From Candidatus Daviesbacteria bacterium GW2011_GWA2_42_7 (GTDB lineage: Bacteria > Patescibacteriota > Microgenomatia > Daviesbacterales > UBA10151): a DNA stretch of 39,972 nucleotides. Positions 1 to 8,833 of the stretch are shown piece by piece. A program made the translations under genes and the position numbers. Under the pieces are notes generated by a model. It ran no database searches and was not told the DNA's origin. It saw nothing but the letters and a program-made list of their open reading frames with translations. The stretch is taken from positions 1-39,972 of the forward strand of contig LCEJ01000006.1 of NCBI GenBank assembly GCA_000997105.1. Reading direction: 5' to 3'. Numbering within the stretch: position 1 is the first letter of the stretch; each line of letters starts with the position of its first letter.

Positions 1-237
1 CATCGCCGCCAAAAAAATAGCGGAAGCGATTATCCAGTAAGTAGCACCTAACCAGCTGAACCAATCGCCCATTATCATTTTTGAGGCAGCAGCCACCATC
101 GAGGCCAGAGTCAAGACCCTAAATAAGCCCATATTAGAATCCCTGGTCTTCTGGAATTCCACTAGAAACAGCAATATGGTCGCTACGAACACAACCACTG
201 CAACCTGATAAATAGATGCCCACAGAACAAATTCCAC
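1..237 (-). CDS. small integral membrane protein, N-terminal 79 codons only (gene runs off the left edge); paralog of 881..1150
   Basis: Hand translation of the minus strand from GTG at 237 (AAGGAG 6 nt upstream) gives VEFVLWASIYQVAVVVFVATILLFLVEFQKTRDSNMGLFRVLTLASMVAAASKMIMGDWFSWLGATYWIIASAIFLAAM, open to position 1. It is hydrophobic and shares a GDWF motif and layout with the 881..1150 product. Not in the ORF track (non-ATG start, partial). Confidence 0.45.
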   Translation of the reverse strand, partial: MEFVLWASIYQVAVVVFVATILLFLVEFQKTRDSNMGLFRVLTLASMVAAASKMIMGDWFSWLGATYWIIASAIFLAAM

Positions 238-256
238 ATTACTCTCCTTAAATTTA

Positions 257-350
257 TTTACTACCCAAATGGATAGCTTACGGGACACCTCCTTTAGATG
301 CCCCAAAAGCTACCCATTTAGGCAAACTTCCGCAAATTATCAAGGTACAA
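257..350 (-). promoter_or_regulatory. conserved structured 5' leader, copy A (candidate cis-regulatory RNA)
   Basis: About 80% identical by eye to 1168..1262. It folds into the same nested hairpin (AAATGGGTAGCTT / AAGCTATCCATTT plus apical GGGGCA / TGTCCC). It lies between a promoter (364..392) and the CDS starting at 237. Confidence 0.5.
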
Positions 351-363
351 GAGAACAACCGAT

Positions 364-392
364 AGTATAACATGAAATTATGGACATGTCAA
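364..392 (-). promoter_or_regulatory. sigma70-like promoter TTGACA-17 nt-TATACT (minus strand)
   Basis: The reverse complement reads TTGACAtgtccataatttcatgtTATACT. It is upstream of leader copy A. Confidence 0.5.
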
Positions 393-418
393 ACTATAAG
401 CTATACCTCATGGCTACA

Positions 419-435
419 GCAAGGCCTGGCCTTGC
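419..435. repeat. 17-nt palindrome GCAAGGCCTGGCCTTGC
   Basis: Perfect inverted repeat. The same unit occurs twice in tandem inside pheT (21899..21938). Confidence 0.7.
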
Positions 436-462
436 AGGGATTAGTTATGCATTTTGGGTATG

Positions 463-497
463 AAAAAGCCCCATGCCATACGGCACATGGCTTCTCT
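463..497 (-). terminator. rho-independent terminator of the 881..1150 / 521..880 two-gene unit
   Basis: The minus strand reads CCATGtGCC-GTAT-GGCATGG followed by GGCTTTTTC, about 25 nt after the stop at 521. Confidence 0.5.
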
Positions 498-520
498 CTT
501 ATACATTTTATTGGGCCTAT

Positions 521-880
521 TTAGCCCCTTTGCGGAAGTTTGTGGGACCTGGCCTGCAGGAGAAGAAGAGATAGAATGATTAACCAGAACAATCCTGCTC
601 CTCCCTGCACAACCGGACTAAGTACCTCTAAGGTAATCATAGCTGCCAGCCCGCTTAGAAAAATGTGGGCTGTACAGCCGATGAAAAAGAGACTCAAGGC
701 ATATAGCCCCAAGCCGTAGCGGCACATCAAGGCCCAGACAAAGGCAAAGACGGCCACATACAAGACAAAGTTTGCAGAGGGAGGTACCTCTGTCTCCATT
801 CCCACCAGCACCAATGCCCATAGGAATCCCATCGTCCCTATCCCGGCCAGTACCCAAAGAACCTTATCCCTATCTTCCAA
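521..880 (-). CDS. integral membrane protein (about 4 TM segments), hypothetical
   Basis: 119-aa ORF, strongly hydrophobic. Its start abuts the stop of 881..1150, which suggests translational coupling. Confidence 0.5.
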   Translation of the reverse strand: MEDRDKVLWVLAGIGTMGFLWALVLVGMETEVPPSANFVLYVAVFAFVWALMCRYGLGLYALSLFFIGCTAHIFLSGLAAMITLEVLSPVVQGGAGLFWLIILSLLLLQARSHKLPQRG

Positions 881-1150
881 CTAATCCTCCTTATTTACTT
901 TTTTCGATAACTTATTTATCTCGCCAAAGTATAGCAAGGCAAGAAAGACCACCACTATACCCATAAACCAATCGCCTATCGCTAATCGGGCCAAGATAAT
1001 ATAGACCAAAACGATAAACTCTGATTTTAGGAGGATAATAAGAGATCTTTTACCTCTTTTACGCAGCACCAACTCCGTTAGTGCCATGAAGATGATTAAG
1101 GTATAGCCTATTATGGAAGAGGCTCTCCAAAAATCAGTTAACTCCTGCAT
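881..1150 (-). CDS. small integral membrane protein (GDWF motif), hypothetical
   Basis: The ORF track gives 881..1168. I prefer the second ATG (MQELTDF..) at 1150 because GGGGGAAG precedes it and the paralog at 1..237 aligns from there. The product is hydrophobic. Confidence 0.5.
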   Translation of the reverse strand: MQELTDFWRASSIIGYTLIIFMALTELVLRKRGKRSLIILLKSEFIVLVYIILARLAIGDWFMGIVVVFLALLYFGEINKLSKKVNKED

Positions 1151-1167
1151 GCTTCCCCCTATATTCA

Positions 1168-1262
1168 TTTACCACCCAAATGGATAGCTTACAGAGTATC
1201 TGCCTGGATACCCCAAAAGCTATCCACTTAGGTAAACTTTCCGCAAATTTTTAATGTACAAA
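1168..1262 (-). promoter_or_regulatory. conserved structured 5' leader, copy B (candidate cis-regulatory RNA)
   Basis: Homolog of 257..350. Middle stem is AAGTGGATAGCTT / AAGCTATCCATTT. The apical stem GGTATC / GATACT differs in sequence from copy A but still pairs. Confidence 0.5.
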
Positions 1263-1329
1263 AGATTTGAAAGGAAACCTTTAAAGGCTAGCGCAGCAAT
1301 TTGCACCTCTTTTCCGGTTTACAGAGGAA

Positions 1330-1358
1330 ATAATATCAAAAACATATTTAAAAGTCAA
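1330..1358 (-). promoter_or_regulatory. sigma70-like promoter TTGACT-17 nt-TATTAT (minus strand)
   Basis: The reverse complement reads TTGACTtttaaatatgtttttgaTATTAT. This would give a 5' UTR of about 170 nt containing leader copy B. Confidence 0.45.
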
Positions 1359-1428: not shown

Positions 1429-2499
1429 ATGTATAAACCAAAATTTACAGTCACTTCACAGATTCTAACTTCCATCTCGGAAATTGCCGAAATTAAATCT
1501 ATTGTAGAGCGTTCCCGGGTACTTCCCCTAAACGAGGCCCAACTCCGTAGGGAAGCCATATCCCGAATGGCACATACTTCAACCTCAATTGAAGGCAATA
1601 AGTTAGCCCAATACCAGGTAGATAAGGTTTTATCCGGCATGTCGGTTAACGCCGATGAAAAATCCATCCTCGAAGTCAAAAATTACCAGGCTGCCTTAGT
1701 ACAAATGGATAAGATTGCCAAGGTCTCACAAGTTTTAAACATCGGGCAAGTCCTGGAGATCCACAAATTCTTAATGAATGGCTTAGTGGCAGAGGAGAAG
1801 CGGGGACATTTCCGCAAAGGTGCAATTTATGTCGTGGATGATTTAGGAGACGGAAGGGAACAACTCCGATACGAAGGCCCGCCGGCTACAAAAGTGCCAC
1901 ACCTTATTAATGAGCTCCTAAAATGGTTAGTTTTGGCAAAAAAAGAAGATCTCCATCCGGTTTTAATAAGTTCTATTTTCCATGTCCAATTTGTAACTAT
2001 CCACCCTTTTACCGACGGGAACGGAAGGATAGCAAGACTTTTAACAGCCCTAATTTTGTACCAAAGCGGCTGGGATTTTAGAAAAATTATAGTCCTTGAG
2101 GATTTTTACAACCAGGATAGGCAAGCCTACTATAACGCCCTAAACATTGTCCAGGGCAATAAGTATCACGAGGGGGAAGACTTAACACCTTGGGTAGAAT
2201 ATTTTATAGAGGGGTTCCTGGTTGAAGCAAGACAAGTAAACGAAAAGATTGCCCTGATGGGATTTGGCAAGGTCTCCGAAGCTGCCGAGCAGATATTTTT
2301 AGATAGGGACGAAATACAAATTATGGACTTTTTGGCCACAACCGGGCGGATTACCAGCCAGGATGTCCGGGAAATATTGGGGGTTGCCAAAAGGACAGCC
2401 CAGCTTAAGCTCAAAAACCTTACTGACAAGGGACTTCTAAAATCACAAGGCAGCGGTCCCTCAACTTACCATGTACTCTATGGTGGTGAGCGAGCATAG
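1429..2499 (+). CDS. fic: Fic family protein (AMPylase-type) with C-terminal winged-helix domain
   Basis: Carries the Fic motif HPFTDGNGRIARLL. An N-terminal inhibitory-helix-like motif S-x-x-x-E-G is present (STSIEGN). The C-terminal wHTH-like tail reads ITSQDVREILGVAKRTAQLKLKNL. Confidence 0.9.
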   Translation: MYKPKFTVTSQILTSISEIAEIKSIVERSRVLPLNEAQLRREAISRMAHTSTSIEGNKLAQYQVDKVLSGMSVNADEKSILEVKNYQAALVQMDKIAKVSQVLNIGQVLEIHKFLMNGLVAEEKRGHFRKGAIYVVDDLGDGREQLRYEGPPATKVPHLINELLKWLVLAKKEDLHPVLISSIFHVQFVTIHPFTDGNGRIARLLTALILYQSGWDFRKIIVLEDFYNQDRQAYYNALNIVQGNKYHEGEDLTPWVEYFIEGFLVEARQVNEKIALMGFGKVSEAAEQIFLDRDEIQIMDFLATTGRITSQDVREILGVAKRTAQLKLKNLTDKGLLKSQGSGPSTYHVLYGGERA

Positions 2500-2588: not shown

Positions 2589-3110
2589 ATGTCCGATGAA
2601 AGTTGTCCGAAATGTGGTTCTCCTTTAGGGGATATTACCGAAACTTCTACCGGTAAAAAATTACAGAGGTGTTCCCAGGGGTCCTGGAACCCCCAAACAA
2701 AGAAAAACGAAGGATGTGAGTATGTTAAATGGCTCCAGGTTGAGCCTCAAACTTTAGATGAAAAGTGCCCCAAATGCGGATCAGCCCTGATTATGCAGGT
2801 TACCCGCTTTGGCAAGAAGATGAAAAAGTGCTCCGCGGGTGGCTGGGATAAGGAAGCCAAAAAGGCTACCGGATGTGACTTTGTAGAGTGGATCAACGGC
2901 ACAACAGAAGCTTTGGATGGAAAATGCCCCGATTGTGGAGAGGGATTGGTCTTATATACTACAGCCGCAGGCAAAAAAATGGAAAAATGTTCCACAGCAG
3001 GCTGGGACAGGGAAGCAAGGAAAGCAACGGGATGTGCTTATATCAAGTGGCTTAAACCAGGAGAAATACCAAACAACGCCGGTGAAGAATTTTTACCTCC
3101 TGAAGAGTAG
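2589..3110 (+). CDS. protein made of three tandem C4 zinc-ribbon repeats (topoisomerase-type zinc-finger-like)
   Basis: The unit CPKCGS..(17-21 aa)..KCS.GGW...(K)ATGC.(Y/F)(V/I)KW occurs three times. It resembles the C-terminal zinc ribbons of bacterial TopA as I remember them. Confidence 0.6.
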   Translation: MSDESCPKCGSPLGDITETSTGKKLQRCSQGSWNPQTKKNEGCEYVKWLQVEPQTLDEKCPKCGSALIMQVTRFGKKMKKCSAGGWDKEAKKATGCDFVEWINGTTEALDGKCPDCGEGLVLYTTAAGKKMEKCSTAGWDREARKATGCAYIKWLKPGEIPNNAGEEFLPPEE

Positions 3111-3585: not shown

Positions 3586-3879
3586 TTATTGCTTTCGCTT
3601 ACGGTATTTAAAAACAGACATATTCATAATAAATATCAGATTGGCATCTTCCCTGTGCCCTCCGTCATAACCAGGCATATCATAAATAGCCTTGGCAGCA
3701 TTCTCATGAAAATGCTGGGCTGCCAACAGGTCCTGGGCATAAGTTATGGCAAGTGATATTTTCTCTATCCCATTTACAGTCTCCGGACTTTGAGTGTCAG
3801 AATCCACAATTTGGGATAGATTGTAAATTTTACCTGTCTTACGATCCAGGAAAATAACATTTTCGAGCTCTTTAGGCAT
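3586..3879 (-). CDS. hypothetical protein
   Basis: 97-aa ORF convergent with 3143..3580. No family recognised. Confidence 0.4.
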   Translation of the reverse strand: MPKELENVIFLDRKTGKIYNLSQIVDSDTQSPETVNGIEKISLAITYAQDLLAAQHFHENAAKAIYDMPGYDGGHREDANLIFIMNMSVFKYRKRKQ

Positions 3880-4042: not shown

Positions 4043-4245
4043 TAGCTGTTTAGCTGCTTTTCTCTTGCTATAGCGTTTTCCTCACTCATACAAGCCTCGT
4101 AATATATCAATTCCATTGGTAATCGATACTTAGTAGCTTTTACCAAACCGTTGTTATGTTGTTCCAACCTATGCCTGAGATCAATACTCCATCCGATATA
4201 AAGCCAGCCATCCTTTTTACTTCTTAAAACATAAGTATAGAACAT
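4042..4245 (-). CDS. GIY-YIG nuclease family protein (short, C-terminally truncated relative to the family)
   Basis: Sequence MFYTYVLRSKKDGWLYIGWSIDLRHRLEQHNNG...REKQL shows the typical small GIY-YIG (YIG, R..H N G, REK) pattern. It ends before the usual KGW.R.KK tail. Confidence 0.75.
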   Translation of the reverse strand: MFYTYVLRSKKDGWLYIGWSIDLRHRLEQHNNGLVKATKYRLPMELIYYEACMSEENAIAREKQLNS

Positions 4246-4391
4246 ATCCTGCCATTAGACCTGCCCGCATTGCTTCGCCCACCCGAAACGCTTCGCATAT
4301 CGATGCGAGCGGGCAAAGCGATGCAGGCGGGCGATCCCGCAATACAAAGCATTAAGATTATATTCTATTGAGCTTATCTGTTCAAACCCTG

Positions 4392-4410
4392 ATCCTGGTC
4401 AAGCCAGGAT
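4392..4410. repeat. hairpin ATCCTGG-TCAAG-CCAGGAT followed by GACAA
   Basis: Perfect 7-bp stem. The second copy at 20900..20918 carries a compensatory C/G-G/C swap. Confidence 0.6.
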
Positions 4411-4472
4411 GACAAACTAATATTTGACAAGCGGGTAAATCCGTTTAATACTGGATATGAGGAGGTGATAAC

Positions 4473-4667
4473 ATGGGTTCATATAAGTCACTTGCGTTAA
4501 CTGTTGCTATTATCGGTGCTTTGAATTGGGGTTTGGTAGGACTCTTTGGGATTAATTTAGTAAGCACCTTATTCGGAGCCGGATCAGTATTGGAAAGGGT
4601 TGTATATAGCTTAATAGGCTTGGGAGGTCTTTTGGTTGCCTGGGGAACATGGGGTTCAAAGAAGTAA
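4473..4667 (+). CDS. DUF378 family small membrane protein
   Basis: ALTVAIIGALNWGLVGLFGINLV matches the remembered DUF378 (YuzA-like) signature IGALNWGL.G.F. A strong SD (GAGGAGG) lies upstream. Confidence 0.75.
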   Translation: MGSYKSLALTVAIIGALNWGLVGLFGINLVSTLFGAGSVLERVVYSLIGLGGLLVAWGTWGSKK

Positions 4668-4693
4668 ATTACCCTAAATAGTTGGTATTATTT

Positions 4694-4724
4694 AAGTCCC
4701 CCGAAAGTTCGGGGGACTTTTTCT
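4694..4724 (+). terminator. rho-independent terminator
   Basis: AGTCCCCCGAA / TTCGGGGGACT stem followed by TTTTT. Confidence 0.7.
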
Positions 4725-4868
4725 GAGCTCCTGACGTTATGTTACACAGACTGCCAGGATTCATCCAAGAATTTAACTCAACCCCTATTTTACCAGATTT
4801 TTTATATAACCCCTGTTAATTACGGGTTTTGTATGTATAATAAAGTATAGCAACAATTTTTAACAAGG

Positions 4869-5708
4869 ATGAATAAAGAAGTAACGCAGTCAACTAAAAT
4901 AGCTATCTTCCGAAACAGAAAAATAAGAAAAACTATTCATAAAAATGAGTGGTGGTTTGTAGTTGAGGATGTAGTTTTGGCGCTTATCGATTCAAATGAC
5001 TCAAAACAATATATCCAGCGCATGAAGCTCCGTGACCCCGAGCTTTCTAAAGGGTGGGTACAAATTGTACATACCCTTGCAATAGAAACCAGTGGCGGTA
5101 AACAGAAGATGAATTGCGCCAATACTGAAGGTATTTTTAGGATTATCCAATCAATTCCTTCAACTAAAGCAGAGCCGTTTAAAAGATGGTTAGCCAGAGT
5201 TGGATATGAAAGGGTGCAGGAGATAGAAGATCCGGAACTTGCTCAAAAACGAGCCAGAGCGCTTTACAAAGCAAAAGGATATCCGCAGGATTGGATTGAA
5301 AGACGGATGCGTTCTATTGCCATCAGGGAGGAATTAACGGATGAATGGCAAAAACACGGTGTAGAACTGGCAAAAGAGTATGAAATACTAACTGCGGAAA
5401 TATCTAAAGCCACTTTTGGCGTAACACCATCTGAATATAAGAAAATAAAAGGACTCGAACGCCAAAATTTGCGTGACCATATGAATGATTTGGAGCTTTT
5501 ATTTTCCCAGCTTGGTGAAGCTGCAACGACAGAAATTACCAAAACAGAACATCCTCAAGGGTTTGATAAAAATAAGCAAGTCTCAAGGCGTGGAGGCAAA
5601 ATTGCCGGAGATGCCAGATCTAATCTTGAAAAAGAAACAGGTAGAAAAGTAATTACTTCACAAAATTATTTACCCAAAAAACAGGCTAAAAAACTGCTAA
5701 AGAAATAA
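4869..5708 (+). CDS. BRO-N domain protein with DinD-like C-terminal region
   Basis: The N-terminus IAIFRNRKIRKTIHKNEWWFVVEDVVLAL fits the BRO-N pattern. The C-terminal half resembles remembered E. coli DinD-type proteins. Confidence 0.6.
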   Translation: MNKEVTQSTKIAIFRNRKIRKTIHKNEWWFVVEDVVLALIDSNDSKQYIQRMKLRDPELSKGWVQIVHTLAIETSGGKQKMNCANTEGIFRIIQSIPSTKAEPFKRWLARVGYERVQEIEDPELAQKRARALYKAKGYPQDWIERRMRSIAIREELTDEWQKHGVELAKEYEILTAEISKATFGVTPSEYKKIKGLERQNLRDHMNDLELLFSQLGEAATTEITKTEHPQGFDKNKQVSRRGGKIAGDARSNLEKETGRKVITSQNYLPKKQAKKLLKK

Positions 5709-5709
5709 C

Positions 5710-6411
5710 ATGCCATATAAGGTTCAATCAACTACAATATTACCTAAAGAATTTGTCCCAATTATTAAAGCTCTTAAAGACATTCATAGTTTGCATAATA
5801 AACATCAAATTTGGTATTTAGTAGGCGGATCAACTGCAATAGTAGCAGCTTCTGGCAAATATTTTAAGGTGCTAGGAGATGTGGATATAGTATGCGATAT
5901 TAAACAGCAGGAGGTTCTTCACAATGAGTTAATAAAACTTGGATACAAATTAATAAATATCCCTCCTGATTCAATTGTTAATCGAATCAAAAAACATTAT
6001 GTCAAAGATAAGCAAATAATTGATATCGCTTTTGGAAGCTTTACTAGAAAAGGTTATGAGATAAAGCTCCCAATGTTAATTCCCGGTATTTTATTAGTTT
6101 TTAGTAAGGCTATGATTCGACCTAGCATTTATGTCTTAAGTAATACTAAGTTTTTAGGGTTTTCTAAAGAAGCTCAATGGTTTGGGCTTGGAAGGTTTAT
6201 TGATACTATAGACGCCATGAATGATAAGGCTTCAAAAAGAAAGAGCAATTTGTCATTACTAGATGAAAATCTAAATAAAAAAGTAATAGAAGAAATAAAA
6301 CAAGGAGACCCTGGTATTTACATTCGAAGCATACCGATAGTAACACCTAATAATAGCACCCTCTTATTTTTGACAAACTGGTTTATTAAGTTCTGGAACA
6401 GATTTTTCTAA
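5710..6411 (+). CDS. nucleotidyltransferase-fold protein (Lnu / ANT(2'')-like motif layout)
   Basis: WYLVGGSTAIVAASGKYFKVLGDVDIVCD fits the G-G-x(n)-D-x-D Pol-beta-type NTase signature. It parallels W.(D/G)GGW..D...G...R...DIDI of lincosamide/aminoglycoside nucleotidyltransferases, and a later ..SKEAQ.. also parallels Lnu(A). The region is AT-rich, and the ATG lies 1 nt after the upstream stop. Confidence 0.5.
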   Translation: MPYKVQSTTILPKEFVPIIKALKDIHSLHNKHQIWYLVGGSTAIVAASGKYFKVLGDVDIVCDIKQQEVLHNELIKLGYKLINIPPDSIVNRIKKHYVKDKQIIDIAFGSFTRKGYEIKLPMLIPGILLVFSKAMIRPSIYVLSNTKFLGFSKEAQWFGLGRFIDTIDAMNDKASKRKSNLSLLDENLNKKVIEEIKQGDPGIYIRSIPIVTPNNSTLLFLTNWFIKFWNRFF

Positions 6412-6548
6412 AGATAAATTTAATAAGGTTGCAGGAATGATCCAAATTTCAGTTCGATTCCCGTTAGGGTATTATGTTATGGGATTAAATTTTAGCAAAA
6501 TTTAACAACCTTCCGAAGCTAAAATGCACGAATTCGATAAAAATCGTC

Positions 6549-6623
<75 letters not shown>

Positions 6624-6662
6624 ACTTCGTCACTTCGTTCCTCAGTGTAAACTACTCAGGAC

Positions 6663-6908
6663 TCAGTGTAAACTTTCTATAAGAACCAACTTCTTTTCCC
6701 TTCTCCAACCTTTAATTTCTTTTTCCCTTTTGGCAGCTTTATATTTATTCACGAGCTGCTCCAATACACTAGCCTAACAGGCAACCTTGCTTTTGTAGAA
6801 AGCACTTGACCGCTATTATGCTCCACCAGCCTCTTCTTAAGACTCCAAGTTATCCCTGTATAAAAGCTACTATCATTACACCCCAAGTATATAGACAAAG
6901 TAGGGCAT
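6663..6908 (-). pseudogene. GIY-YIG nuclease pseudogene (two frameshifts)
   Basis: Three successive frames read MPYFVYIL / LGCNDSSFYTGITWSLKKRLVEHNSGQVLSTKARLPVRLVYWSS* / EQLVNKYKAAKREKEIKGWRREKKLVLI... Together these form a full small GIY-YIG protein. Confidence 0.7.
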
Positions 6909-6949
6909 AATATGGGCTTGCCCTGAGGCCGCCATAGGCGGCCGAATGG

Positions 6950-6966
6950 GTGCCACAGCCAGGAAT
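6950..6966 (-). repeat. 17-nt duplicate of the 3' end of tRNA-Phe (att-like direct repeat)
   Basis: GTGCCACAGCCAGGAAT is identical to 7096..7112, which covers the 3' acceptor/T-arm of tRNA-Phe. Confidence 0.7.
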
Positions 6967-7057
6967 GAGTCTCGCTTCGCTCGTCTCCCCCGACATACGT
7001 CGGGGTCGAACCGCTCCGATTTTATCGGAGCTGGAATTAGATTCCTTCGACTGTAAA

Positions 7058-7094
7058 AATTTAACAAGCTAGTGAAAAACTAGCTTGTTAAATT
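7058..7094 (-). terminator. rho-independent terminator of the tRNA operon
   Basis: Perfect 15-bp stem AATTTAACAAGCTAG / CTAGCTTGTTAAATT, followed by TTTT on the minus strand, directly after the tRNA-Phe 3' end. Confidence 0.65.
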
Positions 7095-7096
7095 TG

Positions 7097-7169
7097 TGCC
7101 ACAGCCAGGAATCGAACCCGGATAAGACGCTCTTCAGGCGCCCGCCTTGACCAACTTGGCAACTGTGGC
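7097..7169 (-). tRNA. trnF: tRNA-Phe (GAA)
   Basis: Hand-folded 73 nt: GCCACAG..GGCGC-CTGAAGA-GCGTC..CCGGG-TTCGATT-CCTGG-CTGTGGC-A. Confidence 0.85.
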
Positions 7170-7203
7170 TCTTCGCTTCGCTCGACGTTCGTCGGGAGAA
7201 GGG

Positions 7204-7277
7204 TGGACCCGAGAGGACTTGAACCTCTGACCTCCTCAGTGTAAATGAGGCGCTCTGACCAACTGAGCTACGAGTCC
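7204..7277 (-). tRNA. trnV: tRNA-Val (TAC)
   Basis: Hand-folded 74 nt: GGACTCG-TA-GCTC..GAGC-G-CCTCA-TTTACAC-TGAGG..AGAGG-TTCAAGT-CCTCT-CGGGTCC-A. Confidence 0.9.
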
Positions 7278-7293
7278 AATTTTACCATACCTG

Positions 7294-7376
7294 TGCCGAA
7301 GAGAGGAGTCGAACCTCCACGAGCTTGCGCCCACAACGTTCTGAACGTTGCATGTCTACCATTCCATCACTTCGGC
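7294..7376 (-). tRNA. trnL: tRNA-Leu (CAG)
   Basis: Hand-folded 83 nt with a long variable arm. Anticodon stem-loop is CAACG-TTCAGAA-CGTTG. Confidence 0.9.
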
Positions 7377-7395
7377 ATGTTTGCCCTTAGTCAAG

Positions 7396-7478
7396 TGCCG
7401 GGAAGAGGACTCGAACCTCCACGCCATTGCTGGCACATACACCTCAAGCATGCCTGTCTACCATTTCAGCATCCCGGC
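7396..7478 (-). tRNA. trnL: tRNA-Leu (GAG)
   Basis: Hand-folded 83 nt with a long variable arm. Anticodon stem-loop is CATGC-TTGAGGT-GTATG. Confidence 0.9.
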
Positions 7479-8099
7479 TTTTTGCCTAGATATTATACCT
7501 AATGCATTCATAATTTTCGAGTGTTTTCTTCCTAAACACAAAATATCTGCATTATAATAAAGCTTATTTAAGAGTAGGACAGAGCTTTTTTTAGCATATT
7601 CCAGAGTAAAAACATTAGCTCGAAAACGTATTTTACCTTTAATTCTATAAAGTTGCTCTACCTGATCACTTAGCCACTCTAGATGTTTCTTGCTAGCTGA
7701 AGTAAAGCTGGTATATAACTGAAAACTGCTTTTCCAGCGCGGGTCAAAATAAGAATATGTATAACCATCACCATCTAAACAACCCCTTAAAAAATCAGCA
7801 AAAAATCTACTTGGTATTTTAAGCTCCCCAATAGTTTTAGATTTAGCAGACGTCAGACCAATACTGAGCAAGAATCTGTAGAGTTTTACGTTACTAAACT
7901 GCACAAAGTAATAGCGTTTCTGCGAGTAGCCTGAAGATTTTGATCCTATTTTACTTGTAATCCCAACTGCATGTAAGAAATTTTTGACTTGATCTAGATC
8001 CTTAGAGGTAAAATCTAAATGTCTTCCATCTTTCGACAGACATCCATCGGTAGCAATTAACCCCACAGCATAAGCGAATTCAGCGGTCCACACCACCAC
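7458..8099 (-). CDS. LAGLIDADG family homing endonuclease (double-motif)
   Basis: Two LAGLIDADG-type motifs are present (AYAVGLIATDGCL and FLRGCLDGDGY). The start is GTG. The last 7 codons (AGMLKW*) are the first 21 nt of tRNA-Leu(GAG). Confidence 0.85.
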   Translation of the reverse strand: MVVWTAEFAYAVGLIATDGCLSKDGRHLDFTSKDLDQVKNFLHAVGITSKIGSKSSGYSQKRYYFVQFSNVKLYRFLLSIGLTSAKSKTIGELKIPSRFFADFLRGCLDGDGYTYSYFDPRWKSSFQLYTSFTSASKKHLEWLSDQVEQLYRIKGKIRFRANVFTLEYAKKSSVLLLNKLYYNADILCLGRKHSKIMNALGIISRQKAGMLKW

Positions 8100-8112
8100 C
8101 TCATTATATCAT

Positions 8113-8150
8113 CCCTCAAGTTAATAGCGTCTACCATTAAATTTTCCGGC
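8113..8150 (-). pseudogene. degenerate 5' half of a tRNA-Leu(GAG)-like gene
   Basis: Compare GCCGGAAAATTTAATGGTAGACGCTATTAACTTGAGGG with the intact GCCGGGATGCTGAAATGGTAGACAGGCATGCTTGAGGT. Acceptor strand matches 6/7, AATGGTAGAC 10/10 and CTTGAGG 7/7. Similarity ends after the anticodon loop. Confidence 0.5.
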
Positions 8151-8189
8151 ATGATCTTAACCTACCTATTTTACCAGTATTTGATCCAG

Positions 8190-8218
8190 TTGACAAAAGA
8201 TAAAAATAACCCTAATAT
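8190..8218 (+). promoter_or_regulatory. sigma70-like promoter TTGACA-17 nt-TAATAT
   Basis: Read directly: TTGACAaaagataaaaataacccTAATAT. Confidence 0.5.
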
Positions 8219-8248
8219 TTTTGGCACTACTCTTTGGAAGACGGACCA

Positions 8249-8833
8249 ATGAGAAATATAAATTTTGCCCTAACCTGGTACACCACAACTATTTGCACGC
8301 TTGTATTTTCAATCCTTCTTTTAACTCATCTATCCTTTACCCGTCCGACAATTACACCTATAGGACAAAGCTACCAAAGCTACCGCGCACTGCCTACAAA
8401 CCTCACAACATTAACTACCCAAGAAGTAACTATCGGCAAAACCGATGCCCGTACATTGGTTATCTACCACTTCTTCAAACAAAACAATGCCCCCTTATCC
8501 CAAGCAGCCGAGAAATTTATAGAAGTGGCTGACAAATACAACCTGGATTTTAGGCTTTTACCTGCTATTGCCATGCAGGAGTCAAACGGGGGAAAGATTA
8601 TGCCCAACAACTCCTTTAACCCCTTCGGTTACGGAATCTATGGGGGTAAGGTTTTAAGGTTTACCTCTTTTGAAGAGGCAATCGAACGGGTGGGGCAGGG
8701 GCTTAAAGAAGATTATATAGATAAAGGCTTAAAAACACCTGACCAAATTATGGCAAAATATACCCCTCCTTCAATTGAAAAAGGAGGCCCCTGGGCAATC
8801 GGTGTTTCCTCTTTTATGGAAGAGCTCCACTAG
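8249..8833 (+). CDS. secreted/membrane-anchored protein with SLT-like (lysozyme-fold) E-S motif; paralog of 9047..9634
   Basis: The ATG at 8249 gives MRNINFALTWYTTTICTLVFSILL, an N-terminal TM or signal segment. DFRLLPAIAMQESNGG resembles the catalytic region of soluble lytic transglycosylases. The functional call is tentative. Confidence 0.55.
   Translation: MRNINFALTWYTTTICTLVFSILLLTHLSFTRPTITPIGQSYQSYRALPTNLTTLTTQEVTIGKTDARTLVIYHFFKQNNAPLSQAAEKFIEVADKYNLDFRLLPAIAMQESNGGKIMPNNSFNPFGYGIYGGKVLRFTSFEEAIERVGQGLKEDYIDKGLKTPDQIMAKYTPPSIEKGGPWAIGVSSFMEELH

Follow-up and report, generated by a model that had tools for sequence, protein, structure and literature searches.

Two small membrane-protein genes at the start of a contig from Candidatus Daviesbacteria GW2011_GWA2_42_7, a member of the Microgenomates group of the candidate phyla radiation (CPR), raise the question of what is encoded in the similar noncoding leaders that precede them. 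The window analyzed here is the whole stretch of 39,972 nucleotides (nt) with which this contig (LCEJ01000006.1) begins, and the two leaders lie on its minus strand in units termed A and B (DavA and DavB where they are compared with other genomes). The original prediction regarded them as a candidate new cis-regulatory RNA. This idea stands insofar as a conserved, strand-specific structure is present in a long 5' leader, is absent from Rfam and is found in other genomes, but it does not stand as a stand-alone riboswitch. Instead, the conserved block of the leader is predicted to pair with the 3' trailer, which makes the leader one half of a bipartite 5'/3' module rather than a stand-alone ligand sensor. 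The explanation favored here, with a probability of roughly 0.55, is that a portable mRNA frame would pair the transcript ends, mask the ribosome binding site (RBS) and in this way control the stability and translation of accessory genes. Support for it comes from six distinct units (DavA, DavB, L014, L023, L020, and L057) from three lineages, and in these the order of elements is a near-consensus promoter of the sigma-70 type, the 5' block, a hairpin, an RBS that is mostly paired by prediction, one to three cargo open reading frames (ORFs), the 3' element and a terminator.

Complementarity of the transcript ends

The consensus of the 5' block is CUUUGYACNUURANAAUUUGCGGAA. The block UUUGCGGAA (equivalent to AATTTGCGGAA and TGCGGAAGTTT) had been described as invariant and unpaired, but the folds predict that it pairs with a complementary sequence, itself conserved, at the 3' end of its own transcript. 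The 3' element contains the reverse complement of the 5' core (UUCCGCAAA, UUCCGCA(AA)) plus lineage-specific extensions, and a single copy of TTCCGCAAA (TTCCGCA in unit A) lies on the same strand, after the cargo stop codon and before the terminator, in L001 (a longer contig from this Daviesbacteria organism), L014, L023, L020, and L057. Hence the core complement is a 9-mer in every complete unit and a 7-mer in unit A. The 3' complement was not part of any search pattern, and the chance of encountering a 9-mer within ~150 nt is, by our own estimate, ~6e-4 per locus. In the two Daviesbacteria units the 3' element belongs to a shared 67-nt stretch that forms the end of both gene C and ORF D and contains AAACTTCCGCA. 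As this sequence is read in different frames in C (K-L-P-Q) and D (K-T-S-A), it is conserved at the nucleotide level.

When the predicted full-length transcripts (742-1205 nt) were folded, the minimum-free-energy structures of all six units had the 5' block paired to the 3' element, with the pairing spanning 550-1080 nt. The partition function gave core pair probabilities of 0.7-1.0 for five units, while the pairing in L057 is from the minimum-free-energy fold only. The core helix is extended by GUUU/AAAC in Daviesbacteria, by UACAA/UUGUA in L014, and by UAA/UUA in L020 and L057. Four units also have an outer helix, formed by UCUUUUGUACAUU/AAUGUAUAAGAGA in unit B, by UCUCUU/AAGAGA plus ACCUUG/CAAGGU in unit A, by UUGCAC/GUGCAA in L014, and by UUUGCACU/AGUGCAAA in L023. 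Compensatory changes occur in three columns of the outer helix (U-A/C-G; C-G/A-U/U-A; G-C/A-U), three more are G-U-compatible, and 5'/3' duplexes within a lineage are more stable than those across lineages, L020 excepted. No complete unit lacks complementarity between its 5' block and its 3' element, and the extensions of the modeled helix covary.

A different function for the 5' block would be that of a boxA, with the hairpin serving as boxB, in a nut-like system that loads Nus factors for read-through of terminators. GYACNUURANAA resembles the boxA of the E. coli rrn operons, which we take to be GCUCUUUAACAA, at 8-11 of 12 positions, and the host's own boxA may differ; the closest is L023, which reads GCACUUUAACAAUUU and matches at 11 of 12 positions. 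The arrangement of block, spacer and hairpin downstream of a strong promoter is as expected for such a system, as are a terminator-like second hairpin in L014 and the terminators that separate unit B, unit A, and the ugd and glycosyltransferase genes. However, the predicted pairing of the block with the 3' trailer involves base pairs that covary, the U at position 3 of boxA is an invariant A here and position 5 is free, and there were no matches in viral collections. Antitermination is therefore regarded as highly improbable.

The leader hairpin

That the two Daviesbacteria leaders fold in the same way was borne out by calculation, as the 115-nt segments of the minus strand gave −50.2 and −41.5 kcal/mol (z = −7.2 and −6.4), compared with only −21.4 and −23.1 kcal/mol for the plus strand. 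The minus-strand fold is far more stable because each stem holds 7 G-U pairs. For five hairpins, the sense/antisense energies are −44/−21, −38/−23, −34/−18, −32/−16, and −26/−23 kcal/mol, with 3-7 G-U pairs in each. Across the units the hairpin is 22-29 bp long with at most one 1x1 internal loop; its base is conserved in sequence (ARUGGRUAGC/GCUAUCCAUUU, also UGGRUAGC/GCUAUCCA), and its top covaries. A second block thought to be unpaired, TTTTGGGG, in fact makes up the 5' strand of the upper stem, and the other lineages do not conserve it. A covariance model was built from five distinct sequences. In the model-based alignment of these, 28 pairs were 94% paired and 9 of them changed on both sides; 0-1 of 500 column shuffles reached the observed values, and slid controls were 38-46% paired. 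Among all of the DNA collected in the analysis, the known copies were the only matches to the model. Both the folding of the sense strand into this hairpin and the covariation of its pairs are indicated by the models.

A second small hairpin follows the main one in L014 (3523-3536, minus strand), in L023, and in L020 (6852-6865, plus strand). It takes the form CACAC-AAAA-GUGUG or CAGAC-GGAA-GUCUG, with a compensatory C/G swap. In L014 it is followed by a run of six U and is terminator-like, and the close allele L023 is without the U-run. A small helix that RNAalifold placed around the 5' block (CUUUGYA/UGCGGAA) was dropped because it lacks covariation and the 5'-3' pairing with which it competes is better supported.

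Apart from tRNAs, no Rfam family reached the gathering threshold in the window, L014, L016, L017, L020, and L023 (Rfam 15), in line with the suspected novelty of the element. A search of Rfam by E-value threshold returned only matches to eukaryotic miRNA precursors, themselves generic hairpins, far below threshold at 20-31 bits against thresholds of 80-100. Nothing relevant was found in the literature on a CPR RNA motif of this kind, and the paired-end frame is new as a family.

A long, conserved and structured leader without an Rfam match is also what would be expected of a stand-alone riboswitch, one in which binding of an ion or metabolite would gate the expression of the small membrane proteins, and the predicted pairing of the RBS and the terminator-like hairpin with its U-run between the main hairpin and the RBS in L014 are consistent with it. 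However, the leader has a single near-perfect hairpin rather than a multi-helix junction, there are no conserved internal loops, and for the sole conserved single-stranded block there is a pairing partner, likewise conserved, at the 3' end. In addition, the downstream genes are functionally unrelated (membrane, Ku-like, DUF3164-like, and unknown), and the riboswitch is strongly weakened because there is no gene association. It has very little probability.

Predicted masking of the ribosome binding site

When the leaders were folded alone, the probability that the Shine-Dalgarno (SD) sequence is unpaired was 0.00 in L020, 0.01 in L014, 0.04 in DavA, 0.26 in DavB, and 0.36 in L023. The anti-SD sequence of L020 and L014 (CCUCCUUU or UCUCCU) lies just 5' of the hairpin, and that of DavA (CUCUU, CCUU) is within the strand predicted to pair with the trailer. 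When DavA is folded at full length, the RBS loses its anti-SD partner, and its probability of being unpaired rises to 0.37. Completion of the unit A transcript would therefore free the RBS, as the anti-SD is engaged by the 3' trailer. These folds are suggestive only of a step in which the RBS may be masked or gated.

Closed transcript ends and a masked RBS are known from type I toxin-antitoxin systems, and the hok and aapA1 mRNAs show exactly such a fold-back, their full-length forms being closed by pairing of the 5' and 3' ends with the RBS masked (PMC5416894, PMC6733600). The units could by analogy encode toxic small membrane proteins with mRNAs that are kept inert by the 5'-3' interaction and an antisense RNA. 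The long-distance interaction and the masked RBS are predicted here too, the Daviesbacteria cargo is small and hydrophobic, and weak antisense promoter-like sites are situated over the start codons in DavB and L020. These sites, however, score only 9/12, are absent from DavA and L014, and are no commoner than in shuffled sequence. Unlike the 30-50 aa toxins of hok and aapA1 with their defined antisense antitoxin, the cargo proteins are heterogeneous and 89-286 aa in size, include a Ku-like DNA-end-binding protein and soluble proteins, and have no convincing antisense gene. Moreover, the partner of the 3' element is the 5' block and not the RBS. A system of the toxin-antitoxin type is considered quite unlikely.

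Cargo and exchange of the units

The original prediction linked the leader to small membrane-protein genes. This is true of the Daviesbacteria units, where the cargo consists of orphan membrane proteins, but elsewhere the leader precedes Ku-like, DUF3164-like and unknown genes. The cargo of L020 is a Ku-like protein (PF02735, 1.9e-7), that of L057 is a DUF3164-like protein of 286 aa (6.7e-5, just under the cutoff), and those of L014 and L023 are soluble proteins without recognized function that are unrelated to each other. Gam/Ku-like and DUF3164 proteins are presumably both encoded in the early regions of Mu-like phages, which would be a hint that the two kinds of cargo are functional analogues of phage origin. 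The GC content of the cargo is 49-50% in the L014 lineage versus 31-36% for the host and 51-56% for C and D versus 42%; that of L057 is 36% and host-like.

Comparison of alleles shows how these units vary. L014 and L023 share 97-100% identity in the flanks and 78% in the hairpin region, with unrelated cargo. A Shapirobacteria-like site between a gene of 145/158 aa and a convergent gene has three alleles, one with Ku cargo, one with the 286-aa cargo, and an empty site that is without everything from promoter to terminator (L063, L069, and L070). The Ku-like gene (L020 6896-7726) and the DUF3164-like gene (L057 4815-5675) are alternative cargo at this one chromosomal site; the leaders of the two alleles are the same up to GCTATCCATTT and their 3' frames are the same from TTCCGCAAATTA on. 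At the empty sites (L063 4575-4600; L069 and L070, reverse strand, first 300 nt) the unit of ~1.2 kb is replaced by GGGGTA between AGAAATCGGGAC and TTTTTTTGGG, and at the left junction of the occupied strains there is a 7-bp hairpin (GGACAAA-TTTG-TTTGTCC) just upstream of the −35 element. The breakpoints of the cargo swaps are right after hairpin 1 and just before the 3' core in L020/L057, after hairpin 2 and ~40 nt before the core in L014/L023, and after the SD in DavA/DavB. The presence/absence boundaries are ~85 nt before the 5' block on one side and ~65 nt past the 3' core on the other, with no target-site duplication seen at either. No integrase or transposase was among the genes called within 10 kb of the Daviesbacteria units, and all of the units, in ~40 assemblies, have one orientation.

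Such polymorphism could mean that the conserved sequences are DNA signals of a mobile cassette, in which the inverted blocks or the hairpin in single-stranded DNA would be sites of recombination or transposition (attC-like, IS200/IS605-like, a terminal inverted repeat (TIR) transposon, or an invertible segment). Inverted repeats do bracket an exchangeable segment, the divergence of L014 and L023 begins at the two blocks, the cargo is swapped and whole units are present or absent, and the GC content of the cargo is often foreign to the host. The units resemble integron cassettes in having exchangeable ORFs bounded by imperfect inverted repeats that fold strand-specifically, but differ in the lack of attC core sites (no GTTRRRY at the hairpin ends) and of an integrase, in having their own promoter in every unit, and in their variable breakpoints. 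As these breakpoints differ between allele pairs, there is no fixed crossover point, and the presence/absence boundaries are outside the repeats and take in the promoter and terminator. The mismatches of the repeats are G-U pairs on the transcribed strand. The variable breakpoints, the outside boundaries, the lack of a target-site duplication, the single orientation and the absence of a nearby recombinase gene argue against site-specific recombination, transposon ends and an invertible switch. A TIR transposon with target-site duplication, an integron attC and an invertible segment were each rejected on the boundary, breakpoint and orientation evidence, and a role as mobile-element DNA signals is unlikely overall. 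The observations fit ordinary recombination as the means of cargo exchange, for which the conserved frame may provide portable homology. An uptake sequence was also rejected, the 9-mer having only 4 occurrences in the 40-kb window.

Phage morons are autonomous promoter-gene-terminator units, often of atypical GC content, that are variably present between close relatives. The units described here are likewise self-contained, with their own strong promoter and a terminator, often an atypical GC content, variable presence between relatives, and phage-like cargo (Ku/Gam-like, DUF3164-like, and small membrane proteins). Unlike morons, they are found between chromosomal housekeeping genes (the flanks are ileS, ftsW, L21, L27, parB, and signal peptidase, or fic and ugd), are not within a recognizable phage or prophage, and are absent from viral collections. 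We know of no conserved RNA frame that is shared by morons.

Relatives in other lineages

A metagenome scan with the pattern TTTGCGGAAN{35,65}GCTATCCATTTGG gave true diverged relatives in two further lineages. L014 and L023 are two alleles of one lineage, while L016, L017, L018, and L020 constitute a second, which is placed by its neighboring proteins in the Microgenomates group as Candidatus Shapirobacteria or Woesebacteria; L015, L019, L021, and L022 were chance matches. Features that are independent of the search pattern are CTTTGYACNTTRANAA upstream of the core, ARTGGRTAGC in the 5' arm, the promoter-proximal YATAGT, and the 3' element. A scan of a genome collection with TAGCTTTTGGGGN{8,38}GTAAGCTA gave 7 chance matches and no true member, but this pattern is specific to Daviesbacteria and the scan is therefore uninformative on the distribution of the family in GTDB genomes. 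Two scans of viral contigs gave only chance matches, at 1 and 29 loci, where the covariance model rejected all 29 and the single locus was judged to be a chance match on reading it. Blastn against phage and plasmid collections gave nothing, and there were no true matches in IMG/VR, INPHARED, or PLSDB.

The sequence CYYATAGT(A)TTGAC, just upstream of the −35 element, is common to the unit promoters of all three lineages (L001 9779-9798 and 10745-10764; L014 ~3731-3745; L020 ~6672-6688). Since this promoter-proximal sequence is shared and CTATAG is palindromic, the promoter may be a homologous part of the module or may carry a binding site.

The Daviesbacteria locus

The identity of ~80% noted between the two leaders was confirmed by alignment of 257-355 with 1171-1266 on the minus strand, which are 79.6% identical over 113 nt, and the 19-mer GTAAGCTATCCATTTGGGT has exactly 2 occurrences in the window versus 0.00 expected. 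Both of the proposed promoters were recovered, TTGACA-17-TATACT at 392..364 with 11/12 and TTGACT-17-TATTAT at 1358..1330 with 10/12 consensus matches, each having an upstream TG, and the leader lengths of ~120 and ~173 nt derived from these predicted promoters are as first proposed. Proteins A and B indeed share little, with no BLASTP similarity except for a 9-residue stretch around GDWF (E = 0.021), and the constraint on the leader RNA structure exceeds that on the coding sequence, as had been claimed. Proteins A, B, and C are orphans among 5.8 billion protein clusters and gave nothing in Pfam, NCBIfam, PHROGs, or PADLOC. The similarity between units A and B goes further than the leader and includes the promoter, the 67-nt 3' element and the end of the terminator.

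The layout of the locus is seen in full on L001, where the minus strand of the window reads as plus and the window position is 11151 minus the L001 position. Unit B, consisting of promoter, leader, gene B (89 aa), gene C (119 aa) and terminator, is followed by unit A, consisting of promoter, leader, gene A (93 aa), ORF D (68 aa) and terminator, and then by ugd and a large glycosyltransferase gene. All features given below are on the minus strand of the window unless noted otherwise. In unit B, the promoter (1330..1358) has a TG-extended −10 element and the YATAGT that is common to unit A and other lineages just upstream of the −35 element. The start of the leader, ~58 nt (1266..1323), is specific to unit B and absent from unit A. 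The 5' block (1235..1265) is made up of the outer-helix strand (1265..1253), an A-rich loop, and the core with its extension UUUGCGGAAAGUU (1247..1235), and its predicted partner is at 540..495. The leader hairpin (1172..1235) has 28 bp, of which 7 are G-U pairs, and a 6-nt loop. It is followed by the SD sequence GGGGGAAG (1152..1159) and the ATG start codon (1150..1148) of gene B (881..1150), which encodes an orphan membrane protein with three predicted transmembrane segments, and by gene C (521..880), encoding a further orphan membrane protein with a GC content of 51%. In the 3' element (495..540), AACUUCCGCAAA (540..529) would pair with the 5' core and the strand at 507..495 with the outer-helix strand, and the small hairpin GGGGCUAAAUAGGCCC (528..513) includes the stop codon of C. 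An intrinsic terminator (463..490) completes the unit.

Unit A has a TG-extended promoter (364..392) and a 5' block (324..354) comprising UCUCUUGUACCUUG (354..341), which is also the anti-SD in the leader-only fold, and the core with its extension UUUGCGGAAGUUU (336..324). Its hairpin (261..325) has 29 bp with 7 G-U pairs and a 5-nt loop, and in the fold of the leader alone its SD sequence AAGGAGAG (242..249) is paired with the 5' block. The start codon of gene A is GTG 237, as the frame from ATG 239 hits a stop codon, and the first 79 of its 93 codons are present (1..237), the gene being cut by the edge of the window, which is the apparent start of the contig. The 3' partner of this 5' block is at L001 11368-11414, outside the window edge. 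ORF D (L001 11202-11408), which follows gene A and contains the conserved 3' element, encodes a very basic protein of 68 aa, has a GC content of 56% and a good SD, and is doubtful as a gene.

The proximity of the two units has a further aspect. The 3' element of unit B (528..541) is a perfect 14-nt complement of the 5' block of unit A (323..336), 190 nt downstream, and matches it better than its own 5' block, for which a bulged A is needed. In a read-through transcript these two could pair and would enclose terminator B and promoter A.

The units are otherwise flanked by ordinary chromosomal genes (thrS, pheT, atpA, PBP1A, a murT-like gene, and tRNAs). A Fic-domain protein with a C-terminal winged helix-turn-helix (HTH) domain (1429-2499, plus strand) is divergent from unit B, and in the L014 lineage an XRE-family HTH gene is directly upstream of the unit, with a second XRE copy on contig L074. 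These Fic/HTH and XRE genes are possible regulators of the unit promoters. At 2589-3110 (plus strand) there is a 173-aa protein consisting of three tandem topoisomerase-type C4 zinc ribbon repeats, with a similar linker after each. The interval that separates the units from the murT-like gene (~4100-8300) holds Bro-N, a small GIY-YIG ORF, DUF378, and a LAGLIDADG-like ORF that adjoins a cluster of five tRNA genes at 6551-7478, and this patch of genes of the mobile-element type suggests that the units are situated in a variable region of the chromosome.

Discussion

In the proposed portable frame, the 5'-3' helix would close the transcript in the manner of the terminal helix of a stable RNA, and the hairpin would clamp the upstream pyrimidine-rich anti-SD onto the RBS. 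Together, helix and clamp would set the stability and translation of the enclosed gene, and the units would act as autonomous accessory modules that are moron-like but chromosomal. The duplexes have the size of RNase III substrates, and the one faint likeness in Rfam is to miRNA precursors. We infer from the modeled structures that a nuclease might have a role, that the RBS might be gated, and that some trigger might be involved.

Several points weigh against this proposal. The structural evidence consists of thermodynamic prediction and covariation from the six units in three lineages, and the invariance of TTTGCGGAA and GCTATCCATTTGG is in part circular because the metagenome scan required both. 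L020 and L057 lack the outer helix and have a core helix of 11-13 bp only, and the L018 allele is without any 3' element. In L018 (981-1300) the similarity to L020 ends exactly at the stop codon of Ku and a mechanosensitive-channel-like gene comes next, a rearrangement at the 3' border of the unit. The partners that mask the RBS are non-homologous between units, and L023 and DavB show weak masking. Three units (L014, L023, and L020) have hairpin 2, which the Daviesbacteria units and L057 lack. The cargo proteins do not share a function from which a signal could be guessed, and processing of the long regular duplexes by RNase III, which would be the most likely switch or maturation step, is suggested by their shape only.

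How does the frame compare with known systems? The flanks of rRNA operons and other stable RNAs pair over ~1 kb or more, and the resulting long helix shields the ends and is a target of RNase III cleavage. The frame is like these processing stems in that flanking sequences are predicted to pair over a long distance, and unlike them in that it encloses protein-coding accessory genes. To our knowledge, terminal processing stems are known for rRNA and tRNA precursors and not for protein-coding accessory genes, and pairing between the 5' and 3' untranslated regions (UTRs) of bacterial mRNAs is known to us from a handful of individual genes. In the icaR mRNA of Staphylococcus aureus the 3' UTR pairs with its own 5' UTR, which affects translation and makes an RNase III substrate (PMC3868564). 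As in icaR, a 3' segment is predicted here to base-pair with the 5' UTR of the same mRNA, but in icaR the 3' UTR pairs directly with the SD and one gene only is involved, whereas in the frame the predicted partner is a dedicated 5' block that precedes a separate long hairpin, and unrelated genes from different genera have this pair in common. In the hbs mRNA of Bacillus subtilis a structured 5' UTR and a 5'/3'-UTR interaction control the access of ribonuclease and couple stability to translation (PMC5737220). Both of these elements are predicted for the frame, but hbs is a single housekeeping mRNA that has no sequence similarity to it and no portable frame. What the frame has in common with icaR, hbs and hok-type mRNAs is complementary segments in the 5' leader and the 3' end of one transcript and support for their pairing from covariation, here in a small sample of six units.

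A broader and distinctly speculative proposal, with only an outside chance of being correct, is that the units represent an unrecognized class of horizontally exchanged CPR expression cassettes. Their standard RNA chassis, consisting of promoter, 5' block, hairpin, 3' block and terminator, would be recognized by a dedicated trans-acting factor, tiny genomes would use them to plug in, silence and conditionally express foreign and often phage-like genes, and the conserved blocks would serve as portable homology for swapping.

What is found is that the same 5' block, hairpin and 3' block are reused around unrelated genes in at least three lineages of the Microgenomates group, and that the frame has the behavior of a portable module: its cargo is swapped, it is duplicated in tandem, and one allele is an empty site. 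If the favored explanation is true, this would be the first family-level, gene-independent element that pairs mRNA ends and would be among the very few cis-acting RNA elements known from CPR bacteria. It would also represent a compact natural design for insulating transgene expression, and the frame could help to explain how accessory genes are taken up and regulated in these reduced genomes.

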